Shown: piece after piece, positions 3,002 through 36,493 of the stretch | Position numbering within the stretch: the first letter of the stretch is position 1 | Layout of the letters: each line of letters starts with the position of its first letter | Assembly: GCA_963663965.2 (NCBI GenBank) | Contig: CAXXFK010000039.1 | Coordinates: forward strand, 1-36,493 | Reading direction: 5' to 3' | Length of the DNA stretch: 36,493 nucleotides | Source: Sedimentisphaerales bacterium | GTDB lineage: Bacteria > Planctomycetota > Phycisphaerae > Sedimentisphaerales > SM23-30 | The notes under the pieces: model-generated | What the model was told of the DNA's origin: nothing | The model's input: the letters and a program-made list of their open reading frames with translations, nothing else | Databases searched by the model: none | Position numbers and translations under genes: made by a program

Positions 3002-3037
3002 GCAAAATCCTTATTCAGAGAAATCTATGCAAATAAA

Positions 3038-4537: not shown

Positions 4538-4566
4538 AATGATCCTTTCTTTTTTTCCGATGATTA

Positions 4567-5847
4567 TTACGATACGTTCTCATAGGCCGTATCGAACCGC
4601 ATGCTTTCCAGAGATACGGGAAACAGCGGTGAGCGCAATGACTGATTCTCCCAGCCATACAGTATTTCCATAATAGTCCCGCAAGTCCGCCCCTGACACG
4701 CCCCCATCCCACAGCGAGTCTGTAATTTGGCGCTGCGCCAGTCATTAAATGTCAGTAAATCGCCCAGTCGAATATCTTCGCAGCGGCAAATTATCGTATC
4801 ACTTGTGGTGATCGTTTTAAGGGCCTCCCTCAGTTTGAATGACTCCGCCAGCTTTTGCGCGAAGGCCTGGTAGCGGTCACGTTTAAGATACCAAACTTCC
4901 GCCGATTCTTTTAAACCGGCAGCGCCATAAGCCGCGATTTTTCCTTCAATCAAAGCCTTCTCCACACCACCGATCCCGGTCAATTCCCCAGCGGCGTAGA
5001 TATCCTCCTCGCTGGTCTGTTGCAAATCGTTGACTCTGACCAATCCCGCTTCAACCTTACAGCCCAGTTTTTTGGGAATCTCTAACATCGGAGTCAGACC
5101 AAAGCCGCAGGCCAGATAATCACAGGGTACTTTCCAGATTTTATTGCCACGTTTGAACGCGACACTTTTCAATACTTCATCGCCATTGGCCCTAATCGGG
5201 TAACATCCGGTCAGATAGGGTACCCCCAGAAGTTTGCCTTGATATTCAACCGCCTGAATCAACTTGCCCGGACTCAACCAGGGTAAAGACATGCCAAACT
5301 GCATCAATTTTAAGAGGCTGCTTTGTTCCGCGATTAACACGACTTTAGCGCCGGCCGCACGCAGTTCTGCTGCGACGGCAAACAACAGCGGTCCGCTTCC
5401 GGCTACGGCGATTCGTTTTCCACTCACCGGCCAGCCGGTTTTGACCAATGCCTGTAACGCGCCGGCGCCATAGACATTCGGCAGGGTCCAGCCAGGAAAT
5501 GGGATAAATACTTCCCGTGATCCCAGGGCTAGAATCAACTTCTGATAACGAATCTCGACAGATCCTTCATGATTCTCCGCCAGAATAACCCCGGGTTCCG
5601 GACAATCATACACCGTGGTATTCAGGTGCTGTGACACCCGGGACTGCTCCAGTCGATGAAACCATTTTCTTGCCAGAGGGGATTGTGCTTTGAGGCTGCC
5701 ACCCCGCCAGATCTGTCCGCCCGGCCAGGGCAATAGATCGATAACCGCAGTCGATAATTCTGACTGATCGGCCTTGACAGAAGCGGCAATGCCGGCCGGA
5801 CCGGCGCCTATCACAACACAATCATACATAAAAAAGCGCCTACTCAT
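4567..5847 (-). CDS. FAD/NAD(P)-binding oxidoreductase with C-terminal BFD-like [2Fe-2S] domain (HcnB/OoxA-like; D-hydroxyproline dehydrogenase alpha subunit)
   Basis: VIGAGPAG, PFPGWTLP, AGSGPLL, IICRCED, TRCGMGACQGRTCG. Start at 5847 overlaps the upstream gene's end; 5829 is an alternative start. Confidence 0.85.
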   Translation of the reverse strand: MSRRFFMYDCVVIGAGPAGIAASVKADQSELSTAVIDLLPWPGGQIWRGGSLKAQSPLARKWFHRLEQSRVSQHLNTTVYDCPEPGVILAENHEGSVEIRYQKLILALGSREVFIPFPGWTLPNVYGAGALQALVKTGWPVSGKRIAVAGSGPLLFAVAAELRAAGAKVVLIAEQSSLLKLMQFGMSLPWLSPGKLIQAVEYQGKLLGVPYLTGCYPIRANGDEVLKSVAFKRGNKIWKVPCDYLACGFGLTPMLEIPKKLGCKVEAGLVRVNDLQQTSEEDIYAAGELTGIGGVEKALIEGKIAAYGAAGLKESAEVWYLKRDRYQAFAQKLAESFKLREALKTITTSDTIICRCEDIRLGDLLTFNDWRSAKLQTRCGMGACQGRTCGTIMEILYGWENQSLRSPLFPVSLESMRFDTAYENVS

Positions 5848-6088
5848 CCGTTTGCACCTCCATCCCATGCTCACAAAGGGTATGGCAACTTTTACAGTGC
5901 GGCCGTCCGTTTATTGTCACTCGACATTCATAACAGACGCCCATGCCGCACAGCGGAGCCCGCGGCTGACCCGAAACCGAACTCCGGAACCGGCGAATCC
6001 CCAGATCCGCCAGCGCCTTCGCCAGCACCGTACCCGCTGCTACCTCGACCGATTGGCCATTAACCTTTATAATCAATGATTTATCCAT
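5840..6088 (-). CDS. Small [2Fe-2S] subunit (HcnA/OoxA-associated type; D-hydroxyproline dehydrogenase gamma subunit)
   Basis: PRAPLCGMGVCYECRVTING...SC..LCEHGMEV ferredoxin motif; overlaps both neighbours. Confidence 0.88.
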   Translation of the reverse strand: MDKSLIIKVNGQSVEVAAGTVLAKALADLGIRRFRSSVSGQPRAPLCGMGVCYECRVTINGRPHCKSCHTLCEHGMEVQTDE

Positions 6089-7211
6089 GCGTTAAACCCA
6101 CCCTCATAAATCGCATCGGACTGAATGGTTCGATGTTGATTTCAGGCTGTTGTCCCAGGATCATATCCCGAATAATCCGCCCGGTTCCCAACGCTGTAGT
6201 AATTCCCAGCCCTTCATGGCCGGTTGCCAGCCAGACCGCTTCATGGCCGGGATCGGGTCCAATGACCGGCAGCTTATCCGGCGTGGCCGGTCGAAAACCC
6301 GTCCAGCCACGAATCGCTTTGGCTGACCGCAAATCCGGTATATATTCAAACGCGCGATCCAGCATCCGCGTCAGTATGCGATAATCGATTCCATGATCCT
6401 CTGTATCAAACTGCCTCGATGAACCTATCAGCATCTGACCAGTCTTGCGCGGCTGGATATTGAATGCCACCGAATCGGCTGTCATACTGTGAGCGCTTTT
6501 CAGATAACCCAGTTCTACTAATTGATGATTGACGAAATTCGGATATCGTTCTGTAACAACCAGATGGCCTTTTCGCCGGCGGACTGGCAACTCAGGACTT
6601 AAATAAGGTGAAAAACATCCCGCGGCAATAATGATACGGTCGGCGGATACTTTCTGGCCATCCGCCAGCAAAACGCCTCCATCCGGGATAATGGCTGACA
6701 CTTCAATCCCGGTCCGTATCTCTGTTTGATATTGTTTGGCCTGATTGAGCAGGTAATAAGTTGCTGCCGGAGGATAAAGAACCGAATCACTCTGAACCAG
6801 CAGGCCTCCCGCCAGTCCCGGTCTTAAATGAGGTTCTGCCTGATATAACGTGTTCTCGTCCAATATTTCGACGGTTAACCCCACTTTTTTATAGACCTGA
6901 AATTTTCGATGAACCTCCTGCATTTCTTCCGAATCCGCGGCGATCCAGATCGTTCCGCACTGCCACATCTCTACCGAATTGGGTAAGTCACCGGCGATGT
7001 CATGCCATAACTGCTGGGAATATCGACTGAGCGCCAACTGGGCTTCACAATCATCCAGTACGACGATATGTCCCATTCCCGCGGCAGTTGTACCACCGCC
7101 AATCTCAGCGCGATCCAGTACCAGCACGGTCATGCCCGCCCGGGTAAGTTCCAGGGCGCAACTGGCTCCGACAATTCCGGCTCCCACCACAATCGTATCA
7201 AAAGAATCCAT
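6081..7211 (-). CDS. FAD-dependent D-amino acid oxidase-family subunit (HcnC/DadA-like; D-hydroxyproline dehydrogenase beta subunit)
   Basis: IVVGAGIVG, GTTAAGMGH, WTGFRPATPDKLPVIG, ATGHEGLGIT. ATG at 7211 forms a TGATG overlap with the epimerase stop. Confidence 0.88.
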   Translation of the reverse strand: MDSFDTIVVGAGIVGASCALELTRAGMTVLVLDRAEIGGGTTAAGMGHIVVLDDCEAQLALSRYSQQLWHDIAGDLPNSVEMWQCGTIWIAADSEEMQEVHRKFQVYKKVGLTVEILDENTLYQAEPHLRPGLAGGLLVQSDSVLYPPAATYYLLNQAKQYQTEIRTGIEVSAIIPDGGVLLADGQKVSADRIIIAAGCFSPYLSPELPVRRRKGHLVVTERYPNFVNHQLVELGYLKSAHSMTADSVAFNIQPRKTGQMLIGSSRQFDTEDHGIDYRILTRMLDRAFEYIPDLRSAKAIRGWTGFRPATPDKLPVIGPDPGHEAVWLATGHEGLGITTALGTGRIIRDMILGQQPEINIEPFSPMRFMRVGLTHG

Positions 7212-8152
7212 CACACACGAATTCCCCAACAGAACGGATCTTTCTTATCCAGCATCAAGGTTGTTTCCGCGCTAATATAAGCAGAACCGGTAACAAACGG
7301 GATAATCTGATCCCGATCCCGTTTAAAACTCCCCTTAAAAATACTGCCGATAATGCTCTCCTGCAGCCACTCATCACCTTCCGCCAGTTTGCCATCGGCT
7401 GCCAGACAGGCCAGTTTCGCGCTGGTGCCGGTACCACAGGGTGAACGGTCATAGGCGCGGCCGGGACACAGAACAAAATTTTTACTGTCCGCGCCCGGCA
7501 TAGTCGGTGGGCCAAACAATTCAATATGATCGACTTCTGGATACCCGGCAGCATTGACCGCCTGTCGTACCCGCCAGGCATAGTCGGTTAAGGCGTCAAT
7601 ATTATCCTGTCGAATGGCCAGTGAATCACATTCGCTCAGGAAAAACCAGTTGCCACCCCAGGCTACATCCCCAGTGACGGTTCCGATATTGGCAACGGTG
7701 ATTTCCAGATCTTTTTTAATTCGGTAACTGGGGACATTTTGAATCGATACTTCTCCATTTTCATGCAGGGTGGCCTTGACAATGCCAACCGGGGTTTCAA
7801 TCAGATGGACTCCGGCATCAATACGGCCCAGATGAAATAACGTCGTAATCAATCCGATCGTCCCATGCCCGCACATTCCCAGATACCCTACATTATTAAA
7901 GAAGATCACTCCTGCTGTGCAGGTTGGATCGGTTGGTTCTACCAGAAGCGCACCCACCATAACATCCGATCCTCGGGGTTCTTCAATAATAGCAGCGCGC
8001 ATCGCATCGAAATGTTGTCGGAATAAATCCCGTCGTTCGCTTAAAGGCCCTCTGCCCAGATCCGGCCCGCCGGTGACGACTACCCGGGTCGGTTCACCGC
8101 CGGTATGAGAATCCACTACGGATATTCGCCGGCATGTTGACATTTTTGTCAT
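7211..8152 (-). CDS. 4-hydroxyproline 2-epimerase (proline racemase family)
   Basis: DSHTGGEPTR, two catalytic Cys motifs GMCGHG and DRSPCGTGTSA. EPRGSDVMVGA and FVLCPG are typical of 4-Hyp epimerases rather than proline racemases. GGAGA RBS precedes ATG 8152. Confidence 0.88.
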   Translation of the reverse strand: MTKMSTCRRISVVDSHTGGEPTRVVVTGGPDLGRGPLSERRDLFRQHFDAMRAAIIEEPRGSDVMVGALLVEPTDPTCTAGVIFFNNVGYLGMCGHGTIGLITTLFHLGRIDAGVHLIETPVGIVKATLHENGEVSIQNVPSYRIKKDLEITVANIGTVTGDVAWGGNWFFLSECDSLAIRQDNIDALTDYAWRVRQAVNAAGYPEVDHIELFGPPTMPGADSKNFVLCPGRAYDRSPCGTGTSAKLACLAADGKLAEGDEWLQESIIGSIFKGSFKRDRDQIIPFVTGSAYISAETTLMLDKKDPFCWGIRV

Positions 8153-8299
8153 ACAATCTTTCTCCAAAGCCAAACAGCAAAAAAATCATGCAATCGTCGT
8201 TGTGTTCATAGCACTAATTAATATAATGAATCCCAAACCGTTTTTTTTCTTGTGACTTATATGAGCAAAACCTGAATTTTTGGCATAAAACCATAAAAA

Positions 8300-21638: not shown

Positions 21639-21714
21639 ATATCAACACTTGAGATATATCTGGGCTTCTTATTTTCCTGCAATCAAGCATATTTACTATA
21701 CAAGGATCCTGAAA

Positions 21715-24700
21715 ATGGCAGCCAGTCGTTTCCATGTCATTGCTATTGCCCTGCTGATATTGACGATATACGGATTGAACAATGTTTATGCGGTGACGAT
21801 TTTCGAATGTTTCGATAGTGATCCGGCAGATCGAAACTGGCAGAGTCAATCCAGCGATAACACCCGATTGGTCTATAACAGTCAGGGGTATCTGGATGCA
21901 TCCGTTTGCCGGGAGGCCGGGCAGAAAGTGGGTTATTCCTACTTACTACAAACACCGATCGAGCTGACGGATGAGTTCTGGTTTGAAATGGATTGTCAAT
22001 TATCCAATGGTCAGACTGACTCCTGGGGACGGGCATTGTTTGGGGTATTTAATGCCTCAGCGGACCATGCCGAGTTTGTCGGTTGCCGGTTTGCATCGCC
22101 CCAGGTTAACAATCGCTACGATCTCTGGCGTCAGGTATCCGATGGCAGTTATCAATATTTTAACGGTCCTGCTCCCATACCGGATCACGCGCTGATTCGA
22201 GTTAAAGGGCATTACTGGAAAAATAACAATAATGGTTACGCGCAAATTGAAGTTGTAGATATTGTCAGTGGGGTGGTTTATGGTTCCACCGGTCCCCAAG
22301 TCGTCTATGATGCTACCGCGGGTGTTGTCTTTAACCAATTTGGCTTGTGCAATCGTACCGATGGCGGACTGACCAGTCCAACTGTGTTCAAGGTCGATAA
22401 TCTTTATTTTTCCACTGAAGGCCCCAATACCAACACCCGGATCCCCTCTTTTTATGATCCCTGGCAGGGTAAGCTGACACTGAGTGATGTTTTTGCGGTG
22501 GCCAGGGCAGATTCATTAACGGTACAAACCCGGCTAAAAAATGAGTCCAGTCAACCACTGACCGCTACTATCCGATATCGGGTTTATGAAAACGAATCAC
22601 TCGATCACGCCCCATTCCTGGAGATCATCGAAGGGCCGCTGACCGTTCCCGCCGGTGGGGAGCAGGTTTTTGAATCGCATCGTAATCAATTGCAGCCTGA
22701 ACTCTGGTCGCCCGAAACTCCCAATTTATATTTGCTGACAACTGAGATCCTCGATACCAGCATGAACCAGGTTATCAGTCATGATACAGCGATCGGGTTT
22801 CGCACGTTCGAAGTTGCCGGAAAACATTTTCATTTAAATGGCAAGCCCATTTACTTATTTTCTTTTCACCGTATGCCTCCGGGGCGTATTCCATCCGCCG
22901 TGCATGAAGATTCGGCCTTTATCGCCCAGCATATCGCCCGGTTAAAAGCGTTGAATGTCAATTTTGTCCGTTTAAACGAAGGGGCATCCCCGGCATGGTT
23001 TGAGGCTTGTGACCGGGCCGGGATTATGGTCATGGCGGGTTGTTATTCGGGCGCCGGGCGAACCGATCCAAGCCTGTGGCAAAGCAATCTGGAGCGGCTT
23101 CAGGCAGAAATACCCCGGGTGCGCAACCATGCTTCGGTGTGTATGTGGATATTGGGTAATGAATGGAATTTTGGGATCAGCGGCATGCGGCAGGCGGCGG
23201 AAGATTTGTATCATGCGACACTGGAACTGGACAGTTCGCGCCCAATGTTCAATACCTGGACGGCCAAATATTACAACGGCGGCGATTTAATAGCCGGTAC
23301 CGGTTCGGATTTTCTTGATTATCATACCTATACCGGCTGGTATGGCGGTTCAGTTTACGATTTGTATAAATATCATATTGACGAAGATTTTCCCGTGACG
23401 ATCAGTGAATGCGTGGGGGCTTATACCGCGCTGGATCCGTATGATATGAGTTTTGCGGCGCAGGATAACAAGATATTTGACAAATACCTGGCCAACCTGT
23501 TACGGAATGTCGGGCACAGTTATGATCTGTCGAATGACAGCCTTAGCTACCAAACGTATCTGACACGTGAACTGGTGGAGATGTGCCGGCGTTTTCGCAG
23601 TCCGGACAGTTCGATGTGCGGCGCGATGCCGTTTACCAATGGCTACGCGTATCATTGCTATTACGATAGCAAAGACATAACCGAGATTGCCAAACCGGTG
23701 ATGGATTCGCTGGGGCAGGCGTATCGACCGGTTCATATCAGTATCCGAATTCCCTATCCCAACTTATATGCCGGGGACAGTACCACGGTTCGTTTTTTCG
23801 TGCTGAACGATGACCGGATAAACTATAATCCGCTATTGCCCGCTTCCATGCTTGAATTGGATCTGATCGATCCGCTGGGAAAGGTCGTGTGGCATACCAG
23901 CAATTCCGTTCCCGATGTTCCTTATTATTCCAGTTGGGATTCTAATATCCCGATTAATGTCCCGGCGTCCGGGATAGCCGGCGATTATGAGATACTGGCT
24001 CGTTTAGTTAAGAATGGTCAGGAGATTGTCAGGAGCTCATCTGAACTCACCGTGGCCCGGCCTGGTTGGGCGGTTGTACGCTCGTTGTCTTATGGGGCAG
24101 TGGCGTTGTATGATCCAGCCAATACGACGCGTGATGAATTGCAGGCGCTTGGATTGAAATTTCAGTTGATTTCGAACTTCAATAATCTCAGTGGTTATCA
24201 ATACCTGATTATTGGTAAAAATGGATTTGACGGATCCGTATCCGCTGCTGAAGCAACCTTGGCGTCTTTTATTGACGGAGGGCACCGGATTCTAGTGCTT
24301 GAACAGGAAAGTTCAAGTGCGGAAACTGCCTTTGATAACGCCGGCTGGCTGGGCACTCATCTGACGCTTTCGGGTGCGGATAAGGGTGAGGATTTTGTTA
24401 ATATGGAGCGGCCCTGGCTGGTCAACCTGATGGATGGCCTGGAGCGGGGGGATTTTCGGATCTGGAACCGTCATTCATCCGCCATGCCCCAGGACCGGGC
24501 TCTTTTCAGCCGGTATTATGAACTTGAGTATGCTGACCTGGATAGCGTGGCGGTGTTAGCCAACGCCGGTCATCATTTGTATAAAGCGATTCTGGTCGAA
24601 ATTTTCTCTCAGACCGGAACCGGCGGAAGTTGTTTATGCAGTCAGCTCCGGACGATCGACCGTTACAAGACCGATCCCAAAGCGGATAAATATCTGGCCA

Positions 24701-25395
24701 ATCTGCTGGACTATTTTCTTGAATCGGACAGGCATTACCATTCTGTCCAGGTCGGTCATCGGATAGATTTCGGTGACTTTGCCTCCGAGAAAGGGCTGAT
24801 TTTTGCCCCCATGCTCCAGGGGATGGCGGTGGCTTATCATGGCGGCCCATTTTATCTACCGGGCAATGGCCGGGATTTCCGCGGGCAGATGAAGATTGAA
24901 AATTCACTGGGATATCTGGAAGAAGATAATCCGGCCGACATGGAACGTTGTCCGATGTATCTGAGATGCGAACAGAATCTGGGGTGTGTGCCGGTGGTCG
25001 TGGAGGTCGAAAATGCTTACAGCAGTCCGCTGGGATTTCGGATCATCGTTAATGACTGGTCTTCCGAAAGGCAGACTATTCAGCCTGGGGTAAGAACTCA
25101 ACTGGCTTTCGAACTGCCCGCGTTGATCCCTGCCGGCACGCCCATAAAATTGCAAATCGAAGCGGATGAAGGTGAACATTATCACGGCGGCAGCCGGGGG
25201 CTGATTTTTCACAATATTCAATTGCATCATTCGCCCGGCGATTTGAATGGTGATGAACGTGTGGACCGGAACGATCTGGTTTGCCTGCTGGACCGCTGGC
25301 TGGCAACCGGGTTGTGTCTGGATGACTATGACGGAGATAACAAAATAAACCTGAACGATTATCGGATTCTCGCTAAAAACTGGCAGCTTTGGTGA
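21715..25395 (+). CDS. Secreted multidomain glycoside hydrolase family 2 with N-terminal lectin-like domain and C-terminal dockerin-like domain
   Basis: Signal peptide from ATG 21715 (AAGGA RBS). LWSPETPNLY, IGFRTFEV.G..F.LNGKPIYL, CDRAGIMV, RNHASVCMWILGNE (acid/base Glu), VTISEC (nucleophile). C-terminal GDLNGDERVD.ND...DYDGDNKINLND. Confidence 0.88.
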   Translation: MAASRFHVIAIALLILTIYGLNNVYAVTIFECFDSDPADRNWQSQSSDNTRLVYNSQGYLDASVCREAGQKVGYSYLLQTPIELTDEFWFEMDCQLSNGQTDSWGRALFGVFNASADHAEFVGCRFASPQVNNRYDLWRQVSDGSYQYFNGPAPIPDHALIRVKGHYWKNNNNGYAQIEVVDIVSGVVYGSTGPQVVYDATAGVVFNQFGLCNRTDGGLTSPTVFKVDNLYFSTEGPNTNTRIPSFYDPWQGKLTLSDVFAVARADSLTVQTRLKNESSQPLTATIRYRVYENESLDHAPFLEIIEGPLTVPAGGEQVFESHRNQLQPELWSPETPNLYLLTTEILDTSMNQVISHDTAIGFRTFEVAGKHFHLNGKPIYLFSFHRMPPGRIPSAVHEDSAFIAQHIARLKALNVNFVRLNEGASPAWFEACDRAGIMVMAGCYSGAGRTDPSLWQSNLERLQAEIPRVRNHASVCMWILGNEWNFGISGMRQAAEDLYHATLELDSSRPMFNTWTAKYYNGGDLIAGTGSDFLDYHTYTGWYGGSVYDLYKYHIDEDFPVTISECVGAYTALDPYDMSFAAQDNKIFDKYLANLLRNVGHSYDLSNDSLSYQTYLTRELVEMCRRFRSPDSSMCGAMPFTNGYAYHCYYDSKDITEIAKPVMDSLGQAYRPVHISIRIPYPNLYAGDSTTVRFFVLNDDRINYNPLLPASMLELDLIDPLGKVVWHTSNSVPDVPYYSSWDSNIPINVPASGIAGDYEILARLVKNGQEIVRSSSELTVARPGWAVVRSLSYGAVALYDPANTTRDELQALGLKFQLISNFNNLSGYQYLIIGKNGFDGSVSAAEATLASFIDGGHRILVLEQESSSAETAFDNAGWLGTHLTLSGADKGEDFVNMERPWLVNLMDGLERGDFRIWNRHSSAMPQDRALFSRYYELEYADLDSVAVLANAGHHLYKAILVEIFSQTGTGGSCLCSQLRTIDRYKTDPKADKYLANLLDYFLESDRHYHSVQVGHRIDFGDFASEKGLIFAPMLQGMAVAYHGGPFYLPGNGRDFRGQMKIENSLGYLEEDNPADMERCPMYLRCEQNLGCVPVVVEVENAYSSPLGFRIIVNDWSSERQTIQPGVRTQLAFELPALIPAGTPIKLQIEADEGEHYHGGSRGLIFHNIQLHHSPGDLNGDERVDRNDLVCLLDRWLATGLCLDDYDGDNKINLNDYRILAKNWQLW

Positions 25396-25503
25396 TAATC
25401 CGTTCAGCTGGAACGGAAAGATAAAATCGCGTAATAGCCGAGGCAGGGAATTTCTTGCTTTGGTATCGATATTATTCTGGTCTCTTTTATAAAGGAGCTT
25501 GTT

Positions 25504-28296
25504 ATGAAAAGGAAATGTTCTGGTTTAATGATCGTTTTGTGGCTGGCGTTTCCGATTTCGGTATGGGGAGCCGGGTTGGATACGATCGTTTCGGACGATT
25601 TTGAAGATGGTAACCGGGATGGCTGGTTTAAAAGCAATGACGCTTCGTCTTATGAACTGGCGGTTGCCGAAGATCCGAATCTTGGCACGGGGAAAGCGTT
25701 GCTCCTGACCAACACCAGCACCACGGGCCGGTTTCTGATTTGTCCGTTTGATCCTATCGTCTTGCAAAACCCGGGCGAAACGATCCAGGTCAGTATTGAT
25801 GTCCGGGCCACGACGGCCACATCCAGTACAACCGGTTTTCGACTGGGCCTGATGAATTCCAATGGCACGCCGCTGATCGTGGATGAGACAGGTAAGGCCA
25901 TCACCGATGATGACTATGGCTATTTTATTCGTATGGCGGTCGCGCCCGGTTCGGGTACGCTACAGATTTGGGACGATCCGGGCGTCAGTACAGTAGCCGG
26001 CGGCAGCAATATCGCCAAATGTGCAGAGACAAGTTCGAATTACGCGCTGGATGGCAATAAGCATTCGTTTGTTTTCAGAGTCACACGGCTGGCGGATGGC
26101 TCCGGCATGCAGTGGGATCTGGTTTATGATGGCGAAAAGATCATTGACAGCGTCAGCGGTGATTCCGATTCACCCGTAACTGAGTTTGATGAATTTGTAC
26201 TGGCTTCAGGCGCCAATGGTGTCGATTTTGCCGTGGATAATGTCGTGATTCAGACCGAAACGGTGCCTCTGGTCGATGCCGGCCCGCAATATCTTATTGG
26301 GCCTTTCTCCGGTATCCAACTGCAAGGCTTGACCGACGCAACCAATCCGACGATTCAATGGATTCAACTGGATGCACCGGCTGAACCGAATGTGGTCTTT
26401 AATGATCCTGAAGTCCTCGATCCAATTATTACAGTCGATGAGCCGGGTATTTATACTCTGCGTATGACTGTCAGTGTCGGGAATTTTACCGGTTACGATG
26501 ACATCACAGTCCGGGTCAAGCCCGATGACCTGATCCATGCCCTTCAGGCTCACTGGAAATTTGACGGCAACAGCAGCGATCCCGACGATTATTATTACAA
26601 AATGACCAGCGTCACCGGCACGCCGCAATTGGTTACGGTTGGCAGCGGCTATCGCTGCGGCACGGCGCTGGAACTGAAAAAAGGGGACATTCTCAATTAT
26701 GGTCCCGCTGTAGGCGGTGATACCAGCGTATCCATTGCGTTCCGGTTTAAACCGGCCGCGGATGTCGGCGATGAAGGGATCGGGATTATCAGCAAATACT
26801 CCAGTGTCAGTGCTGATCCTCATGGCGGCTGGACGGTACAATACCGCAACGATGCGGATCTGCGGTTCCGGATTTCTTCGGGGTGGAACAACGGTACCGG
26901 CGATCTGAAGATTGTGGGCTCATTCCCGCCCGGCCAGTGGACCCATGTGGTGGGTACTTTCGATGAGACCACCGGCGAAATGAACTTTTATGTTAATGGT
27001 GAATTAACGGATACACGTACTACCAGTCAGACCTCATTAGATCTGGTAACCGACTTGAAGATTGGCGGCGAGAACTGGTCCGGTCTGGTTGATGAAGTGT
27101 ATCTCTATGACTATGCTATTAACGCGGAGCAGGTATACGAATTGTACGGCGCCTGTCAGAATGTTCCACCGCTGGTCAATGTAATCGAAGAGCAGGTCAA
27201 GGCAATTCTGCCGCAGGATACGGTTATACTGCATGGCGAAGTGGCCGATGATGATGAGACGACGGTAGCCTGGTCGGTAGTTGACAATTCGGTAGGCGCC
27301 CAGATCACCTTCGGTTCTCCTGACGCGCTCGAAACCACCGCTCAGTTCAGTATGCCGGGTAACTATACCCTCAAACTGACCGCCACCGACAGCGAAGGAT
27401 TAAGCAACAGCGACACGGTTGTTGTTAAAATCCGGCCGGAAGACTTCGACGGTCTCGAAGCCCATATCACTTTTAATTTTACCGATCCCAATTCGCTTGA
27501 TCCCAACAGCGCCCTTGGCAGCAGTGTTTATTACGGCGCGACCATCGGCGGCGCTCCCGGTGTTACGGCGGGTATCGATCCCAATATTCCGACCGACCGG
27601 GCGGTTCGACTGGATGGGCAAAATGACTTCCTGGATTATGGCAAATACCTGGGTTCCGATCCGGCCTGCACGATTGCCATGTGGATCAAGCCCGAAAACT
27701 TGGTCGGTGGTAACCAGTTCCCTGCCGGGAAATGGTCCGGCGACAGCAGCGGCAAGGGTTGGATGTTCCGTCTGCGTGAGGCCGATAATATATCGGCAAT
27801 GGTCGGCAGCAAGTTTGACGGCCCCGGCGTCTTTCTTCAGGCGCCTGGCGCCATCTCACTGGTTGACGGCGTATGGGTACATATCGCACTGACCTTTGAT
27901 GGCGACACCTTCAATCTTTATCAGAACGGCGCTCTGGTTCGGAGGGCAACCGGTCTGGAGTTTTCTACGGATGATCTGGTCACTCCGATGGTGCTGGGGT
28001 ATCGTTCCATTACCAGCACTGAGTTTTTTGGTGGCGTTATTGACGAGGTTCGTATTTATGATTATGCGTTGACACCGGACGCGATCAAGGCGATCTATGC
28101 TGCCGACGGCGGCGATCCGTGGGTGACCTGTACCGCGGGTATCGCCAGCGACCTGACCGGTGATTGCCGGGTCGATCTGCGCGACTACGCGTTATTGACC
28201 GGCGACTGGCAGCAAGCTTACACCGTCAATGATCTTTCGCTGATGGCGACGAATTGGCTGGATTGTGACGATCTGGATCTGGCTAACTGTCAGTAA
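25504..28296 (+). CDS. Secreted protein: lectin-like domain + 2x (PKD/Ig-like + LamG jelly-roll) + dockerin-like C-terminus
   Basis: Signal peptide. PKD-like VDAGP...W.Q...PGIYTLR.TV and FSMPGNYTLKLTATD. LamG AHWKFDG...WTHVVGTFD..FYVNG...G.VDEV..YDYA, found twice. C-terminal DLTGDCRVD..D...WLDC. Confidence 0.85.
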   Translation: MKRKCSGLMIVLWLAFPISVWGAGLDTIVSDDFEDGNRDGWFKSNDASSYELAVAEDPNLGTGKALLLTNTSTTGRFLICPFDPIVLQNPGETIQVSIDVRATTATSSTTGFRLGLMNSNGTPLIVDETGKAITDDDYGYFIRMAVAPGSGTLQIWDDPGVSTVAGGSNIAKCAETSSNYALDGNKHSFVFRVTRLADGSGMQWDLVYDGEKIIDSVSGDSDSPVTEFDEFVLASGANGVDFAVDNVVIQTETVPLVDAGPQYLIGPFSGIQLQGLTDATNPTIQWIQLDAPAEPNVVFNDPEVLDPIITVDEPGIYTLRMTVSVGNFTGYDDITVRVKPDDLIHALQAHWKFDGNSSDPDDYYYKMTSVTGTPQLVTVGSGYRCGTALELKKGDILNYGPAVGGDTSVSIAFRFKPAADVGDEGIGIISKYSSVSADPHGGWTVQYRNDADLRFRISSGWNNGTGDLKIVGSFPPGQWTHVVGTFDETTGEMNFYVNGELTDTRTTSQTSLDLVTDLKIGGENWSGLVDEVYLYDYAINAEQVYELYGACQNVPPLVNVIEEQVKAILPQDTVILHGEVADDDETTVAWSVVDNSVGAQITFGSPDALETTAQFSMPGNYTLKLTATDSEGLSNSDTVVVKIRPEDFDGLEAHITFNFTDPNSLDPNSALGSSVYYGATIGGAPGVTAGIDPNIPTDRAVRLDGQNDFLDYGKYLGSDPACTIAMWIKPENLVGGNQFPAGKWSGDSSGKGWMFRLREADNISAMVGSKFDGPGVFLQAPGAISLVDGVWVHIALTFDGDTFNLYQNGALVRRATGLEFSTDDLVTPMVLGYRSITSTEFFGGVIDEVRIYDYALTPDAIKAIYAADGGDPWVTCTAGIASDLTGDCRVDLRDYALLTGDWQQAYTVNDLSLMATNWLDCDDLDLANCQ

Positions 28297-28317
28297 AGAT
28301 ATTGTTCAAAATGAATC

Positions 28318-28353
28318 AGGCAGGTCCCGGGATTTAACCGGGGCCTGTCTTTA
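28318..28353 (+). terminator. Hairpin between the LamG gene and the prepilin gene (weak terminator or mRNA stabiliser)
   Basis: AGGCAGGTCCCGG-N7-CCGGGGCCTGTCT with a short T tail. Confidence 0.55.
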
Positions 28354-28379
28354 TAACGGTTTCATTCAGGTATACAAAG

Positions 28380-29210
28380 ATGAATGAAAAACACCTGGCC
28401 GATAAAACTTTTCATTACGGATTTACCCTGATTGAACTGCTGGTGGTGATTTCGATCATTGCCATACTAATGGCGATATTAATACCCGCTATGGGTCGGG
28501 CGCGTGAAATGGCCCGCAAGACAGTCTGTCTGACAAATTTAAAGACACTGGGTGATGTTTCGGTCATGTACGCCTCCGATCAGAAGGATTTACTGCCGTT
28601 CAATTATTCGGTTGGGACTAGTAATGGGGTACCGGGGTATATGAACTATACCCTGAAATGGCATACCGATATTCCGGGATATGATACGCCCTGGCTGAAT
28701 CATGGTCTGTTGTTTGGGCGGGGCTATCTGAAGGAACCGGAAGTCTATTATTGTCCCACGCAGAAGAATGATCCGCGCTATGCCTATGAAACCCATTTTG
28801 TCCGTGGGCAGTTACGGCCATTGGCAGAGCGGTCGGCGATCCTGAAAGCCAGTCGCTGGGGCGCGGAACTGTCTGATGACCAACTGGACCGGGTGCGCGG
28901 GTCTTATATCGCCAGAAATTTCAATCCGGCGTTGAAAACCATCAGTAATTATAACGATCCGGAAGCACGTAAGATCAAATACGGCGGTCAGTACGCTTAT
29001 CTGGCGGATCGCTGGACTTTTGGCAGTTCCGGAGTTCACGATAAGCAGTTCTATAACGTACTCTACAGCGATTGTCATGTTGCCACTATCAGTGATTATC
29101 TGGCACGCATCAGCCAATTGGGCGAAGGGATTATTCCTGCCGATCTTGATCCAACCCGGTTTCAGACCTGGTCAGATGGCTGGCGGTTATTCGACCAGGG
29201 AGAATTTTAG
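28380..29210 (+). CDS. Prepilin-type N-terminal cleavage/methylation protein (DUF1559-like, H-X9-DG class variant)
   Basis: [31 protein letters not shown]...VC..NLK, YYCP, and C-terminal H....NVLY.DCHV. Confidence 0.9.
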
Positions 29211-29212
29211 AC

Positions 29213-29246
29213 AAAAAAAAGGCGTCATGAAACGATCATGACGCCT
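29213..29246 (-). terminator. Intrinsic terminator of the alpha-2-macroglobulin gene (between convergent genes)
   Basis: Perfect 11-bp stem AGGCGTCATGA-N5-TCATGACGCCT with an A8 run on the left, which is a T run on the minus strand. Confidence 0.85.
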
Positions 29247-29264: not shown

Positions 29265-32200
29265 TTATTGCTGATTGACGGTCAGGGCGACCGGTTGACT
29301 TTCGGCTCTGATATCGGGATTGTAATATTCGTAAACCACCGACTTCTGCGTCTGGGCCTTGAGCGGGTATTTGGCCAGCAGTTGGTAGCTGACGGTAACG
29401 GGTTGTTTATTATCCACTTCACGGAGATAGATAATAATCTGGCGGCCGGTGGTGTTGTATTTTTCTATCGCACTGCTTTCCACCAGTTTATCCAGTTTAT
29501 CGGCGATCAGGGTAAAGCCCGGCGGCAGGCCGAGGTCGATCATGACCATTTTGGCTTTGCCCGGCCGGTTGTTGGTGATCGTCGCAGTGGCTGTGATGAT
29601 ATCGTTGGTGGCCAGTTCGGTCCGGTCATATACCAGTTTGATTGACATGGGTTCTTCAACGATGCGTGGTCGGTCCGGCCAGGGCAGGTAATAGCGGCCG
29701 ACGACCTGGTACATCATGGACCCTTCACCTTTAAAATCGATTGCGATCTGGTGATCGCCGGTTTGGGTCTGGTCTTTAAGGTCCACCAGTTGCAGGACAT
29801 CACTGTTGGATTCATTGACGGTCAGAGTTTTCATGGGTTTGCCGTTCAGGCTGATGGTAATCGAGGCGCTGGTTTTCTGGGTGGCGCCGCTTTCGGCCAT
29901 GAGCATGGCGCGTAAGGACTGGATGGTGGCCTGGGTCGATTGCCAGGAGCCGAACGAGTCCTTGTTTTTAACCAGGTAGCTGACGGCTTTGCCGACTGTG
30001 CCGAATTCCCGGCCGCAACGGATAAAGGCCTGGATCGCCAGTGCGGTGGTTTCGATATCGCCAGAGAGACCGGTGCCATTGGTGGGGGTGGCTTTGTCGG
30101 TTTCCCACCAGACCAGGTCATCTTTTTCTTTACGCAGGTCGTGCAGGGTACGCAGGGTATCGAGGGTGGTCTTGTCTTCCGGATCGAGAGTCGCCAGGGC
30201 GTTGACGACCAGGGTGCGGGTGAAGACATCTTTCATGTCATCCAGATGATTGCGGATGTATTGCGCACCTTTTTGGACGGCGTTGCCTTTGTAACCCGTG
30301 GAGGCCAGTGCCCAGGTGATATAGGCAGTATTCCGCAGCAGGTCATCGGTATATTTGTTGATGGCGCCTTCAGCGATGCCGCCTTCGGAGGGTTTCCAGG
30401 AGCCATCTTGTTCCTGCTGTTTAACCAGCCAGTACTGGGTGCGGGCGATAATGGCCGGATCGACCTGGTAAACTTTGCTCATATCGTAAAATTCCATCAG
30501 GCCATAGGCAGTCAGGATTTTGTGGGCGGGCGCTTTGCCGAACCATTCGAAACCACCGCCGGGTACTTCGAATGAAACCAGGCGCTGATAGCCGTTATTG
30601 ATAAAGCCTTCCGCTTTCATTTGCAGTTCCGGGGTGATCTTGCCGGTGGTCTTCATGTAATCCAGAATCAGGATATTGGGATACGTGCTTGACGAGGTCT
30701 GTTCAAAACATCCGCCCGGCATCCGCAACATGCCATCCAGTCCTTCAACGATCTGGCTGAGTACACCGGGGTACACTTTGACGAAAATCTTACTGGCGCC
30801 TTCGATGGCGGAATCCGGGATCAGGATCGTATGAGTGGCTGTGTCTTTCAGGCGGCCGTTGTAGCTGAGAATGCATTCTTTGCCGTCCGGGACAATCTCC
30901 ACCTGACGGGCAACCGCATCACTTTTGCTGCTGCCCCGGGCAGTGATGGTAAAGGTCTGGTAGCCGACTTTCTTAGCGATGATGGGGAAGTAGACCGCAC
31001 GGACCTCTTCGGGATCGAGGGTGACCTGCATATGATCGAGCCCCTGTAATTCGAACCAGGGCTCTTTAGTGACCTCCAGTTCGATCGTCTGGCGGGCATC
31101 GAGATAGTTATAGATGGCGACCGGGACATGGATCAGGTCATTCTGGGTGAGCGCTACCGGGAAATCGATATCGACGAAGAATTCCTGGAAGACTCGCAAT
31201 GGGGCAGTGGTGGAACCGAGTTGGCCGGTTGCGGTTGAGGCCAGGGTGGACAGCCGCCAGGTGGTAATCGAATCGGCCAGGGGAATATTCAGTACCGCGT
31301 TGCCGCGGCGGTCGGTAATGACCGCCGGATTGAAATATAGGGTTTCGGGAAAATAGTTGCGGACACGAACGGGTTGCGAACCACCGGCTCTGTCGAATAT
31401 TGAGCTGGTAGATTTTTCGCGTTTCGCTTCAAAGGTCGCTTCCATGGGCATGGCCATATCGAAGACAACCGCTTCGTTGGCAACTATCCCGGGTTCTAAG
31501 CCGCCGCCCATACCACCCATGCCTCCCATTCCAAATCCACGTTGTCGCATCTGCCTGAACCACTGATTTTTACGCAGATTACCATCTTTATCGTTCAGGG
31601 CAACTGACATGAATTCATCAGTCGAGAAGTCGTCTATGGTATTCCACTGGCCATCCAGACCGGCCGATTTTAATGTGAATCCGTGATAGTTGCGGCAGTT
31701 GGTACACCAGTTGCCTTCGAGAGTCATGGCTGTACCCCAGGGATCGACTCCATTTTGCTTTGTCAGAAAATCTTCCTTGATCAAAGTATCCAGGGTGACG
31801 CCGGTTTCAATCGTATCTTGTTTGTGTCTGGCCGAGTATTTTTCCAGGGCTTTGAAGATGGCTTCGTATTTTTTACTCATGGGATCAGCGAAACGGGCCA
31901 GGTATTTACCTTTCATAGCGGTGAGTTTATTGTCCCGCTCCAGGGTATTGACGTTCAGACTGAATTCGTCGACGCCTTCGGCCGAGGCTAACAGTACCCG
32001 GGCGGCAGTGTCGCGGTTCTGGCCGATGACTTCCGGGGTCAGGGGCCGGGGTTTCAGACAGTCATCCAGATCCCAGCCGTGGACTTCGTAGCGCGGGGTG
32101 GCGATTTCTTTTTCCAGATAGAAATAGATTTTTTCCAGTCCGGGCTGCATTTCCTGCAGGGCGAAGACCGCTTCATCCACGACCATGACACCCAGGGCGC

Positions 32201-34199
32201 CAGCGACGCCTTTATTGCGTTTGTCTGTGATTTTGAATTTCAGGCGAGCCTGTTCCGCGGGCAGGTAGCTATCCTGATCAGCGGTGATTTTTATTTTCAG
32301 GTCGTTGGCCGGATCGACAATGACCAGCCGTTTATCGCGTACGATCACACCGTTGGCGCCGATGAGCCAGGCATTGATCTGGATAGTGCCGGCATGGATG
32401 GCATCGAGAGTGAGGGTATCATGGGCGCGGCCGCCGACCAGTTCCAGTGAGCGGGTCAGGGTAGTTTGTTTGTCTTTGATCACATCCAGATAGATAATAC
32501 CCTGTTGACGGGTGGAGAAGATAGACAGGTTGACCGGTTCACCCACTTGATAAAGCGCTTTATCGGATCGAAGCAGAACCTGTTCATCGGCGGCGGCTTT
32601 GTGTTTCAGTTCGATACTGGCTTTACCACGCTGGCCCCGGGTGTCCTGAGCGGACAGTTCCAGCTTCAATAGTTCTGAATCTTCAGGTTTTAAATTGATT
32701 TCGCCGAAACCGGCGGTGTCAGTTTCGAGGGTATTATTCTGGTCGCCAGTCTTAATTGTCACTTTACAACTGGCCGGTGTGGCGTCGGCGTAGGTGGTGA
32801 CGATATAGATTTTGTTTTCCAGATTGGGGATCAGATCGCCGGCTTCGGGTATGGCGGTAACCAGAATGGGATTGGCGGTGACCGAGATGTTTTTGGTGAT
32901 GGTTTCTTTATGATCGGCAGTATCGATCACCGATACTTCAAATTTGGCCGAGGCTTTGCCTGCTTCCAGTGGCTGGCCGACGAAATGTTCAGGTAATTTT
33001 ACTTCAAAGGAGTAATGGCCCTGGTCATCGGTTTTGCCTTCGATCTGCTGGAAGTCGGTGTATTCCAGATCAAATTTGGCGCATTGGATGGAAACTTTGC
33101 CGCTGCTGACCGGTTTACCGAAGAAATAATCAACCTGGATTTCACCTTTGACCGTTTCTCCAGGTTGGTAGAAGGGCTTGTCGGTATCAAGTTTGACTTT
33201 GAATTTGGGCAGGACATATCTGGCGACGGTGACGGTTTTTTCTTCCGTCGCGCCGGCGGCCATGGCCCGTATTTTCCATGCGCCCATATTCAGTTCATCG
33301 GCCAGGACAAAATCGACACTGGCGATACCAAAATCATCGCTCTGAATGTTCTTTTTGAATACCTTGTTGCCTTTGGCGTCTTCCACTTCGAAGATGACAG
33401 CCGTGTTGGCCAGGGCCGTCATTTGGGGGCGTTGTAGTGATAATGACCGGATATGGATAATCTGGCCGGGTTGATAGAGCGGTTTATCGGTGGTTAGCAT
33501 TGTCCGGGTGGCGCTGACAATCTGGATCGATTCTTCGACGACATCGGTGGACTTACCTGATTTGACTTCGACCTTCAATTTGGCATCTTTTCCGTCTTGT
33601 TTGGGGATATTCAAGGTAACCAGCAGTTCGCCTTCGGCATCGGTCTGGCCGGTCTCTTGACGACAAGGGAAATCCTTTATATTACCCAGATTAATATAAA
33701 GGGTGGTAGTGACCTGGGCGTTGGGGATGGGATTGCCGCTGGAGCGGTCTTTAACCATAACCCGAATAACAGCCTCTGATCTGGACATATACTCGCGCTG
33801 GCCAAGTACGGTTGTTTGCAGTACTTCACTTAGAAAGACCAGACTGCGTTTCTGAAAAGATTCATTGGTATCGTAACGATATTTGAGATAATAGCCGGCC
33901 GCATCTTTGTCTTTTATAATCGCGGAGAAATTAATTTTTGTGGGCCCACCTTCATGCCGCTTCATTACCTTGGCTATCAGCCGATCTTCGATATCGTAAA
34001 GTTCCGCTTCGATCAGGCCGGATTTACTGGTGGGGGGCTGAATTTCCACGGTGATGCCGTCATCTCTGATGTCAACCAGGGAGAGTTTTTCGGGGGTGGC
34101 TTCGCCGGCGGCGTACACCAGCGCTATAAGCGAGGTTGTAACACATAACGACAGGATGGATAATAAGACAATACGACTGCGCTTGCTGGTAACGAACAT
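29265..34199 (-). CDS. Alpha-2-macroglobulin / thioester-containing protein with internal GspG-like insert
   Basis: MG domains (TDKPLYQPGQ, YVLPKF, TDKPFYQPGE, SDKALYQVGE), VVDEAVF, VRNYFPET, DSITTW, FQEFFVD, thioester GGCFEQ (30699-30710 for CFEQ), GGFEWFG, LTAY, ETTALA, STQAT, VYEYYNP. Sec-type signal peptide. Confidence 0.93.
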   Translation of the reverse strand: MFVTSKRSRIVLLSILSLCVTTSLIALVYAAGEATPEKLSLVDIRDDGITVEIQPPTSKSGLIEAELYDIEDRLIAKVMKRHEGGPTKINFSAIIKDKDAAGYYLKYRYDTNESFQKRSLVFLSEVLQTTVLGQREYMSRSEAVIRVMVKDRSSGNPIPNAQVTTTLYINLGNIKDFPCRQETGQTDAEGELLVTLNIPKQDGKDAKLKVEVKSGKSTDVVEESIQIVSATRTMLTTDKPLYQPGQIIHIRSLSLQRPQMTALANTAVIFEVEDAKGNKVFKKNIQSDDFGIASVDFVLADELNMGAWKIRAMAAGATEEKTVTVARYVLPKFKVKLDTDKPFYQPGETVKGEIQVDYFFGKPVSSGKVSIQCAKFDLEYTDFQQIEGKTDDQGHYSFEVKLPEHFVGQPLEAGKASAKFEVSVIDTADHKETITKNISVTANPILVTAIPEAGDLIPNLENKIYIVTTYADATPASCKVTIKTGDQNNTLETDTAGFGEINLKPEDSELLKLELSAQDTRGQRGKASIELKHKAAADEQVLLRSDKALYQVGEPVNLSIFSTRQQGIIYLDVIKDKQTTLTRSLELVGGRAHDTLTLDAIHAGTIQINAWLIGANGVIVRDKRLVIVDPANDLKIKITADQDSYLPAEQARLKFKITDKRNKGVAGALGVMVVDEAVFALQEMQPGLEKIYFYLEKEIATPRYEVHGWDLDDCLKPRPLTPEVIGQNRDTAARVLLASAEGVDEFSLNVNTLERDNKLTAMKGKYLARFADPMSKKYEAIFKALEKYSARHKQDTIETGVTLDTLIKEDFLTKQNGVDPWGTAMTLEGNWCTNCRNYHGFTLKSAGLDGQWNTIDDFSTDEFMSVALNDKDGNLRKNQWFRQMRQRGFGMGGMGGMGGGLEPGIVANEAVVFDMAMPMEATFEAKREKSTSSIFDRAGGSQPVRVRNYFPETLYFNPAVITDRRGNAVLNIPLADSITTWRLSTLASTATGQLGSTTAPLRVFQEFFVDIDFPVALTQNDLIHVPVAIYNYLDARQTIELEVTKEPWFELQGLDHMQVTLDPEEVRAVYFPIIAKKVGYQTFTITARGSSKSDAVARQVEIVPDGKECILSYNGRLKDTATHTILIPDSAIEGASKIFVKVYPGVLSQIVEGLDGMLRMPGGCFEQTSSSTYPNILILDYMKTTGKITPELQMKAEGFINNGYQRLVSFEVPGGGFEWFGKAPAHKILTAYGLMEFYDMSKVYQVDPAIIARTQYWLVKQQEQDGSWKPSEGGIAEGAINKYTDDLLRNTAYITWALASTGYKGNAVQKGAQYIRNHLDDMKDVFTRTLVVNALATLDPEDKTTLDTLRTLHDLRKEKDDLVWWETDKATPTNGTGLSGDIETTALAIQAFIRCGREFGTVGKAVSYLVKNKDSFGSWQSTQATIQSLRAMLMAESGATQKTSASITISLNGKPMKTLTVNESNSDVLQLVDLKDQTQTGDHQIAIDFKGEGSMMYQVVGRYYLPWPDRPRIVEEPMSIKLVYDRTELATNDIITATATITNNRPGKAKMVMIDLGLPPGFTLIADKLDKLVESSAIEKYNTTGRQIIIYLREVDNKQPVTVSYQLLAKYPLKAQTQKSVVYEYYNPDIRAESQPVALTVNQQ

Positions 34200-34622: not shown

Positions 34623-36493
34623 ATGAGTAGAGTGCATCCTGGTAGTCTGTGTGGATTTTGGATAATTGTCGCAGGTTGCATGGTCAATTGGGGCTGGGCG
34701 GCCGAGAAGGTGGTGATTACTAAGGATATGGTGATTAATGAAAGCCCGGTGGGCGACCCAACCTTATTGTTCGATGAACAGCAGATGGTTGATGATCCCG
34801 AAGCGAAGCCTTCGACGAACTGGTTTGCCGGCTGGAAACAGGAGACCTATCCGCTCATTTGCACGCTGGATCTGAAGACGAAGCGTGAACTGCAGATGAT
34901 TACCCTGTATGATATCAACAGTGACGGCCGTTTGAGGTGGCTTATCAACAGGATGGCAAGTGGCAGACCATTATTGAGGAAGACTGCAAAAGCTATCAGC
35001 AATGGAAGCGATATCCGGTGGCTATTACCTGCCGGTATCTGCGATTTACGAGAATTTCGCCGGGGGCCAATATTGCCGAAGTCGTGCTCTATGAACGCAG
35101 TGAAGCGGAAAAGCAGGCGATACAACAGGCGGCCAGGCGGGAGCGGGTGGAGGCCGGGAGGTTGTTTGGCAAGTTGCCGCTGGTGGATGAAATACTCTGC
35201 GGGCAGGAGAGTAAGCATCTTTTTAAAGAGAGTGAGCCGGGTGTGAGCCGGGTTGAGACGATACTGGGGCGGCCCTGCCGGGTATTGCCCAACGAGGGTG
35301 AAACGCCGCCTTATTTTGCCTACCGGATGGCGCAGGGCAAGTATCTGGCGCCGGGACAGTGTTATCTGTTGACAGTTGAGTATCCGGATGATCAGCCGCG
35401 CACGATTTATATGATTAACCAGGGTTGCGAAACGCCACGCGGTTTCCACAGCGGTAATACGGTGGGGGACGCACTGCATCCCAAGTATGTGGGGAGCAAT
35501 CCCGAATCGCTGCAATTGCCGGTTTCGGGCGAGTATCAGACCTGGAGCATGTTGTTTTTCATGCAAGACCGTTTTCCGGATTTGAATCAGCCGCGCGGCG
35601 CAGGGCCGCGGCCCCTGACGCCGTACGATGGCTTCTGGGTGGTAGTGGCGCAGCCGGACGCAGCCAACGCGCCGATGTCGGCCGGGGCGGCGGTGGCGCG
35701 CATCCGGCTATTTGATGTGCCTGAGCCGGAACACTATCAGGCCCGTTATCAGCTGCCGCCGGCGCCGCTGCCCAGGCGTCATTTATTCTGGCGTGAGGAG
35801 ATGTCGGACGGGGTGATCCAGAGCTCCAACGAGGCCGAGCGGGGCATTCAAACGGATGTGGCGTTTTATGAATATAAGGCGAAGCTGATGGGGTTCCTGG
35901 GGATGAATACCTTCTGCAAGGATCTATTGGAGTTTGGCCATAACCAGGGCTGGGACGCCGGGCCCAACTGGTATAATCAGGCCCACAACCCCCAACGCTG
36001 GCAGCAGATCCTGGCGATGGTGTCGAAGTATGGCTATGATGTGCTGCCGTATTATGAGTATGCCGGCAGTATCGGGCCGGGCGGTATCGGTAATCAGAAA
36101 CGCTGCAAAACCCTGGGGGGCCAGCCGGACTATACGCATATTTCGTGGTCAGAAAAGGCTAATGCCGATGTAACCGATCCGGATATTCTAAAAGACGCAA
36201 AGAAATTGCTGGACTATACCATTATCCGACATAAGGACAAGGTGAATTTCATCGGGGCGTGGTTCCGGCCGCGCTCCAGCGCGATACCGATCAGTTTTTC
36301 GGATCGTTGTCTGAAGCTGTTCGCGGATGTGTCGAACGAGGGCAAGCCGGTTACCCGCGTCCAATTGCAGCAGGACGATGCGTTATTACACGGTATTATC
36401 AATGGTGGTTTGGGCAGCGCCAGGCGTTTCTGGTGGCGTTGCAAGATCATCTGAAGCAGGCGCAAATCTCGGACGATCCATTTATACTGTATA
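34623..36493 (+). CDS. Large secreted protein: F5/8-type C (discoidin/CBM32-like) domain + putative glycoside-hydrolase-like barrel; two apparent 1-nt deletions; 3'-truncated by the window
   Basis: ORFs 34623.. and 34937.. join if one T is added at 34931-34933 (…DGRFEVAYQQDGKW…CRYLRFT…IAEVVLY completes a discoidin fold). A second shift near 36390 restores RYYQWWFGQRQAFLVALQDHL, open to the window end. Could be a pseudogene or sequencing error. Confidence 0.7.

Follow-up and report, generated by a model that had tools for sequence, protein, structure and literature searches.

A predicted GspG-fold head ahead of the bait in a thioester alpha-2-macroglobulin from the Planctomycetota

The macroglobulin gene and its surroundings

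The window analysed here, a stretch of 36,493 nucleotides from a Sedimentisphaerales bacterium (assembly GCA_963663965.2, contig CAXXFK010000039.1), carries on its reverse strand a gene for a thioester alpha-2-macroglobulin (A2M). The gene converges on a prepilin-type gene, as an initial annotation of the DNA had noted. The features relevant to the analysis are as follows; the roles given for YVLP and RNYFP are those in the accessible sections of PMC9156758.

28380..29210 (+): prepilin-type gene converging on the A2M gene (Pfam: N_methyl, PF07963; weak DUF1559)
29220..29246 (-): terminator-like hairpin, 11 pairs and a T run, directly after the A2M stop
29265..34199 (-): thioester A2M gene, 1644 aa (ORF call and Pfam)
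30699..30719 (-): PGGCFEQ thioester motif with Cys1164 (codon TGT at 30708-30710)
31347..31361 (-): RNYFP, aa 947-951, bait-end plug
31368..31613 (-): probable bait, aa 863-944, Gly/Met-rich
31620..31928 (-): predicted GspG-fold head, aa ~758-860, comprising a long helix and short ones, DPWG, a beta-hairpin and the calcium loop
31629..31664 (-): predicted calcium loop, aa 846-857, fitting the PERCAL motif
31695..31706 (-): CTNC, aa 832-835, at the tip of the hairpin, a possible disulfide
31734..31745 (-): DPWG motif, aa 819-822
31929..32162 (-): linker (LNK) region, aa 680-757, helical, with low model confidence in part
32163..32183 (-): VVDEAVF, aa 673-679, closing the first half of MG6
33207..33218 (-): YVLP, aa 328-331, conserved in MG2-MG3 and part of the plug-in-channel trigger
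34110..34199 (-): predicted export signal, read by eye (basic n-region, hydrophobic core, V-Y-A end)

Pfam places MG2, MG3, MG4, A2M_BRD, A2M, TED and A2M_recep above their cut-offs in the 1644-residue protein, and the MG domains, TED and MG8 follow one another in the order of the A2M superfamily. The CxEQ motif of the superfamily reads CFEQ here, the thioester bond itself being predicted, and linker and exposed bait lie within MG6, together with the YVLP and RxxFP triggers. The closest solved structures are human A2M (E 2e-65), A2ML1, CD109, C4, TEP1 and C3, whereas likeness to Salmonella A2M (4u48) is weak (E 3e-5). By sequence, the protein is thus an animal-type thioester A2M, far nearer to human A2M, CD109 and TEP1 than to Salmonella A2M. 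With A2ML1, CD109, TEP1 and human A2M it shares the MG ring, linker and bait in MG6, the plug motifs, a TED with CxEQ and a C-terminal MG8, and the animal A2M family provides the best PDB matches (E 2e-65 to 1e-42). It differs from these proteins in having a folded GspG-type domain ahead of the bait, in its CFEQ motif, in its bacterial host and in that its relatives swap the content of the slot between linker and bait. In the alignment, the loop facing human A2M's specificity loop contains no histidine; the residue used for this comparison is the one that we take to match the catalytic His of C3. The closest named relatives, among the best 80 of 114 loci, come from Planctomycetota genomes.

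The bacterial macroglobulins described so far are of the E. coli and Pseudomonas types, and a 2004 paper in Genome Biology is said to survey bacterial A2Ms. Type I members such as E. coli ECAM have a lipoprotein signal and an adjacent PBP1C gene. The protein studied here is, like E. coli ECAM/YfhM and Salmonella A2M, a bacterial thioester macroglobulin, but it is distant from them, as the 4u48 comparison indicates, and has no bMG match in Pfam at E 0.01 and no clear lipobox at its N-terminus by eye. The neighbours of its gene are the prepilin-type gene and unannotated ORFs, with no PBP1C gene adjoining.

Elsewhere in the window, two overlapping ORFs of 207 and 505 residues in different frames (34623-36454, +), neither with a Pfam match and the shorter with an export-like N-terminus, are possibly one frameshifted gene. 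Genes for proteins of the proline racemase family, an FAD oxidase, an aldehyde dehydrogenase and a DHDPS-family protein, beside a PAS-AraC regulator (2096-8173, -), form what looks like a hydroxyproline catabolism cluster.

The head between linker and bait

The stretch between VVDEAVF (aa 673) and VRNYFPET (aa 946) has no Pfam annotation. In A2M-family proteins MG6 is interrupted by a single insert made up of linker and bait, at the place where complement proteins have their anaphylatoxin domain (PMC9156758, accessible sections). The initial annotation located a GspG-like domain here, inside the A2M just before the bait and at the position of the anaphylatoxin/bait region; the residues it quoted are in frame with ORF 29265-34199 (-), and the position corresponds to the LNK-to-bait slot as the same sections define it. 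Profile, hhalign and structural matches agree on the domain. Its proposed span, 31626-31880 (aa 774-858), is part of it, but the domain starts before that span, its long helix beginning near aa 758.

Searched alone, the insert gives no match to PF08334 even at E 10 and no GspG match in a phmmer search of the PDB, and the 1644-residue protein does not reach the cut-offs of PF08334 or TIGR01710. A word-indexed homologue search with aa 740-890 returned the query itself and nothing else. A match of the insert to MLD (E 0.04) was rejected, as it covers the helix only.

Relatives were gathered from 11 of 61 genomes and then from the best 80 of 114 loci. Among 77 distinct slots of close relatives, 72 hold the head, 63 of them recognised by a DPWG-to-GxD pattern and nine more by eye; five are without it. 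An alignment of 48 of the 63 pattern-matching slots, profile A1, ranks GspG 3g20 first in the PDB (E 4e-4), GspG accounting for five of its eight matches. The anticipated match to PF08334 is thus absent from the segment alone but present, at E<=0.1, in 13 of the 48 A1 members (best 7e-6). In hhalign the insert family matches the heads of the genome's five GspG proteins over 75 columns (probability 96.2, E 2.3e-9). The insert itself scores 11.1 bits against a profile of these five heads; 500 shuffles reach no more than 6.1 bits, and reversed A1 members (n=48) no more than 4.3.

Structural comparison points the same way. The AF2 model of the head (pLDDT 89.9) has 3g20 as its best match (Z 7.4, rmsd 2.8, 86 aligned), and a comparison with 48,161 chains places PulG at rank 1 (Z 6.8), although these Z values, 6.8-7.4, are middling. 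The first match in the ESM Atlas is a T2SSG cluster (0.94). Foldseek returned nothing under E 0.001, with GspG at E 0.11, so the likeness to GspG expected of a model is upheld by the best structural matches but not by the Foldseek statistics. By profile and by model, then, aa ~758-860 form a GspG-fold head. Like GspG, PulG and EpsG, the head has the alpha-beta fold, DPWG and a calcium loop in which the three side-chain ligands are the same; unlike them it has no prepilin site or hydrophobic helix, is embedded in 1644 residues, scores below PF08334 and is encoded outside a gsp operon.

GspG binds calcium via D117, T122 and D125 (PMC3396595; PMC13081927; accessible sections of both). These residues correspond to D849, T854 and D857 of the head, and the calcium loop is therefore kept, as had been proposed. 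Among the 48 A1 members the T854 position is T in 45, S in two and G in one, and the D857 position is D in 47 and E in one; both positions lie outside the selection pattern, through which D849 is invariant. The loop fits the PERCAL motif, G-x-D-G-x-x-[GN]-[TN]-x-D-D, exactly, as that motif is given in the accessible part of PMC3396595; 10 of the 48 members have it in strict and 47 in relaxed form. The head is thus likely to bind calcium, to judge from sequence and model. In contrast to PERCAL as such, the motif here lies within a whole GspG-fold domain, and the 75-column match reaches GspG heads with a different loop. A reading of the insert as a PERCAL loop with no GspG domain was rejected because the match spans the helices and DPWG.

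In a model of aa 540-1110 the MG strands are confident, the linker is weak and the head (aa ~770-860) has a pLDDT of 84-95, while aa 885-940 of the bait fall under 50 and are disordered. The pTM of this model is 0.42, so the position of the head relative to the MG domains is not fixed. According to the model the head lies N-terminal to the disordered bait, and since it precedes the bait, a single bait cut would leave it attached. Identity to 21 close kin is 56% for the linker, 35% for the head, 15% for the bait and 66% for MG6b/7; within the head, the long helix shows poor conservation (23%). A CxxC is present in 13 of 48 aligned inserts.

Slot contents in relatives and links to pili

The head profile matches 1914 representative proteins at E<=0.001, and among the best 150 of these about 108 resemble A2Ms or have anchor motifs. 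Many of the listed A2Ms of 1800-2100 residues hold two to four tandem heads, often followed by a CarboxypepD_reg domain, and in a scan of 27 proteins eight of the ten of A2M length pass the PF08334 cut-off. Named loci, among the best 80 of 114, belong to Planctomycetota, Acidobacteriota, Verrucomicrobiota, Deltaproteobacteria and Spirochaetia. The taxonomic spread of the A2M-plus-head layout, a point raised by the initial annotation, is therefore wide, taking in several phyla with one to four head copies. Two loci labelled Clostridia (L065) and Aggregatilineales (L079) were rejected as evidence of monoderm hosts, being 3-kb acidobacterial-like contigs.

The head is dispensable for the family. 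In a phylum-wide Planctomycetota sample a homologue was found in 100 of 301 genomes, and 29 of 40 loci, a non-random set of 20 strong and 20 weaker matches, are without a head: heads are found in 11, membrane helices in 18 and a plain bait in the other 11. A large sister group, together with a paralogue in the genome of the window (G000:C20), has two to six membrane helices in the slot, often with a prepilin-like helix at the end, which matches TIGR01710 positions 4-57 (E 5e-4). A pilin-helix profile is matched by 82 of 225 slots, and the canonical G-F-T-x-x-E site is kept in four of 119 slots of the membrane-helix group. Other relatives hold beta-sandwiches or a plain long bait. Among the slots examined, head and membrane bundle were never seen together and none held a full-length pilin (helix and head); two candidates for a head plus a pilin helix, P0160 and P0161, were rejected as helix-only matches. 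P0160, P0161, P0195 and P0252 are A2Ms that retain, within the chain, a canonical prepilin cleavage motif, and prepilin peptidase could, on the strength of this motif, divide each of them in two. A tree of 88 C-terminal halves requires at least five head/no-head changes, compared with a shuffled mean of 29; because its sampling was steered by the query, its deep supports are weak and an animal outgroup was left out, no order of events is claimed.

Heads also occur away from macroglobulins. Seven non-A2M proteins (P0013, P0017, P0054, P0057, P0075, P0130 and P0137) have three to four tandem GspG-like heads and lack a prepilin end; several appear to carry export signals, and P0017 gives a weak TraB/GumN match.

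Several relatives are associated with sigma factor regulation. The head-bearing P0004, P0051 and P0058 have an N-terminal zf-HC2 anti-sigma domain. Three zf-HC2 A2M paralogues (L115:6254-11203:-, which is G000:C20; L116:832-6072:-; L117:5588-10858:-) have two to six slot helices with a prepilin-like end, and in L116 and L117 an ECF sigma gene lies directly upstream; by its gene content this type is a candidate protease-sensing ECF system. In the flanks of 80 loci the commonest A2M neighbours are an ECF sigma/anti-sigma-like pair, at ten acidobacterial loci. There, directly upstream of head-bearing A2Ms (L077, L078, L080, L086, L092, L093, L095, L097, L099 and L101), one member of the conserved pair resembles by eye an ECF sigma factor and the other a zinc-finger anti-sigma factor with a beta-sandwich domain. 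The genome's third A2M (L118:5570-9750, G000:C31) has a plain short bait, CGEQ and N-terminal stops, and is split or broken.

The initial annotation had suggested that the head might bring the protein into a pilus or type II secretion system (T2SS). This was not supported. The hydrophobic N-terminal prepilin helix is absent from the head, with no N_methyl or TIGR02532 match and no membrane helix in the slot, and no prepilin cleavage/methylation site was found in it; a head without the pilin N-terminal helix cannot join a pilus by the known route. The A2M gene is not in a gsp operon, and no gsp/pil neighbours are conserved among 80 related loci. A pattern search of the flanks of these loci (up to 6 kb, some shorter) found a pilin-type ORF at one of the 80, and a terminator-like hairpin separates the A2M gene from its prepilin neighbour, for which reasons their linkage was rejected; the hairpin scan overall gave 8 sites compared with 8.0 in shuffles, that is, no excess. 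Of 20 genomes whose A2M bears a head, 18 were found to have GspG genes, as were 14 of 20 whose examined A2M is headless. GspG presence does not track the head, and the co-occurrence is uninformative.

The converging prepilin-type gene is thus a neighbour and not part of the system. It stands in a row with genes for a GH2 glycosidase and a LamG/PKD protein (21649-29210, +), and this polysaccharide-use layout accounts for its presence. The genome has 73 prepilin motif matches and five GspG loci. One true prepilin, within a pilus-assembly gene cluster (L119:4417-5067:-, G000:C11), has a C-terminal calcium loop that is the genome's best match to the insert (tblastn E 0.1); prepilins of this type are a possible donor for the head.

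Possible roles of the head, and the thioester codon in relatives

The reading we favour, with somewhat better than even confidence, is that of an exported thioester A2M trap with a GspG-fold head that is predicted to bind calcium and likely serves as an attached binding module and not as a pilus subunit. It takes together the domain order, motifs, homology and spread observed above and the predicted head fold, calcium site and bait disorder; from the animal homologues we infer trapping activity, and a binding role is proposed for the head. The protein is likely exported and likely a covalent protease trap. A protease would cut the disordered bait (aa ~885-940), the RNYFP plug would retract, and the Cys1164-Gln1167 thioester would become exposed and acylate a nearby nucleophile, probably an amine, since the aligned loop has no histidine. 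The head, ahead of the cut, would remain connected with linker and MG ring and would hold a target or envelope partner beside the bait. In its favour, the YVLP and RNYFP triggers are kept as in A2ML1, the head folds alone in the model while aa 885-940 are disordered, and tandem heads in non-A2M proteins are what would be expected of a reusable binding module. The poorly conserved long helix does not point to one fixed partner surface. For A2ML1 there is a proposal that the linker and N-terminal bait residues help to hold the protease (PMC9156758, accessible sections).

Alternatively, the head may be a structural spacer. It would then be a stable folded passenger with no specific partner, keeping the bait at a distance from the ring. 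Surface residues vary, conservation being limited to the core and calcium-loop residues, and the slot takes heads, membrane bundles, beta-sandwiches or a plain long bait, with at least five changes in the 88-sequence tree. However, the head is kept across several phyla, and three to four copies occur in separate clades, which is more than a spacer needs. We consider this reading unlikely, though the least unlikely of the alternatives.

Less probable is a calcium switch, or conditional bait, in which low envelope calcium would unfold the head and make it cleavable, arming the thioester or, in the anti-sigma fusions, a stress response. The calcium ligands are conserved, head-bearing relatives with zf-HC2 domains exist, and PulG without calcium unfolds and is degraded; OutG, on the other hand, remains stable without it (PMC13081927 for both, accessible sections). 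Moreover, the 1644-residue protein still has its ordinary disordered bait and has no anti-sigma domain.

Non-covalent docking, with the T2SS pseudopilus or a type IV pilus machine as its site, or service as a decoy for pilus-recognising agents, would be in keeping with the five GspG loci of the genome and with the prepilin-like helix in the slot of the sister group, through which two kinds of pilin piece occupy one slot. It is made improbable, more so than the calcium switch, by the missing prepilin helix, by gsp/pil neighbours that are not conserved and by GspG presence that does not track the head; the G-F-T-x-x-E site is rarely kept in membrane-helix slots, and prepilin genes are abundant donors in such genomes. 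Release of the head on activation as a signal, like C3a, which had been suggested from its anaphylatoxin-like position (PMC9156758, accessible sections) and could draw on a low-confidence linker open to cutting, is very improbable, since the head is N-terminal to the bait and would require a second cut N-terminal to it where 22 sequences show no conserved basic site, and since relatives with membrane bundles in this slot could not shed them as soluble signals.

As in C3, C4 and C5, a small folded domain lies between the linker and the alpha-chain N-terminal stretch, and C4 and C3 match at E 1e-42 to 5e-33. The differences are that the inserted fold is pilin-like and not an anaphylatoxin, that there is no furin-type site (no basic processing site is conserved between linker and head in the 22 sequences), that a disordered bait is kept and that the aligned loop has no histidine. 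There is no extra C-terminal domain, the protein ending 11 residues past A2M_recep.

The pilin-head A2M architecture is real and conserved, and it is apparently undescribed in the searchable literature. No account of an A2M with a pilin-type head was found in a literature search that had most subscription papers and supplements outside it, in agreement with the initial annotation, which knew of no described system with this layout. The accessible part of a 2026 A2M review (PMC12939704) does not mention pilin, and that of PMC8416519 treats archaeal A2Ms. Databases already contain such proteins under automatic names, and a mobile GspG head outside pili explains names such as 'pseudopilin PulG' on 1700-residue proteins. 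The protein represents a large branch closer to animal A2M and complement and has a folded domain at the anaphylatoxin place; it illustrates that this slot tolerates unrelated folded modules and that the GspG head is a mobile domain with a life beyond pili. As a soluble member with a single head, it offers a practical test case for the function of the insert and for the gain of small domains by A2M-like triggers.

A broader and doubtful view, which we rank between the spacer and the calcium switch, is that of a complement-like branch whose slot is an exchangeable targeting cassette of pilin parts, either calcium-binding heads (one to four copies) or a membrane bundle with a prepilin helix at its end. 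These would hold a covalent trap in place at pilus or secretion pores, or would serve to attract attackers that bind pili, some members having in addition a selenoester and anti-sigma signalling.

The selenoester concerns relatives that have TGA, in frame, in place of the thioester Cys codon. Among the loci collected this is so for 20 of 119 distinct motifs, in 15 Planctomycetota genomes (L123, L126, L131, L132, L134-L136, L138-L142, L145, L155, L165, L176, L180, L183, L184, L186 and L188; for example L141:2170-2232:+). To judge from sequence, this TGA is likely to encode selenocysteine. The reading does not apply to the gene in the window, where Cys1164 is TGT. No macroglobulin appears among the 119 families in Table 1 of a 2026 catalogue (PMC13188914, accessible part) or in the accessible main text of the deep-Sep paper (PMC12013277), and the literature search found nothing on selenocysteine at a macroglobulin thioester. 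RNAalifold gave no consensus hairpin for the TGA loci, and covariation in the one register tested downstream of the TGA was not above shuffles. Predicted folding is more stable in the 60 bases that follow TGA (mean z -2.04, n=21) than in those that follow Cys codons (-0.66, n=120; -0.91 at 55 GC-richer Cys-codon loci), the kin sequences not being independent. The genomes with TGA have selA over cut-off in 15 of 15 cases and selB in 13 of 15. The 15 of 53 genomes without selA, the present one included, have TGT or TGC at all 18 loci checked; 23 selA-positive genomes have no TGA at the loci examined. Among the 40 Planctomycetota loci, TGA is found in nine of the 11 that bear a head.
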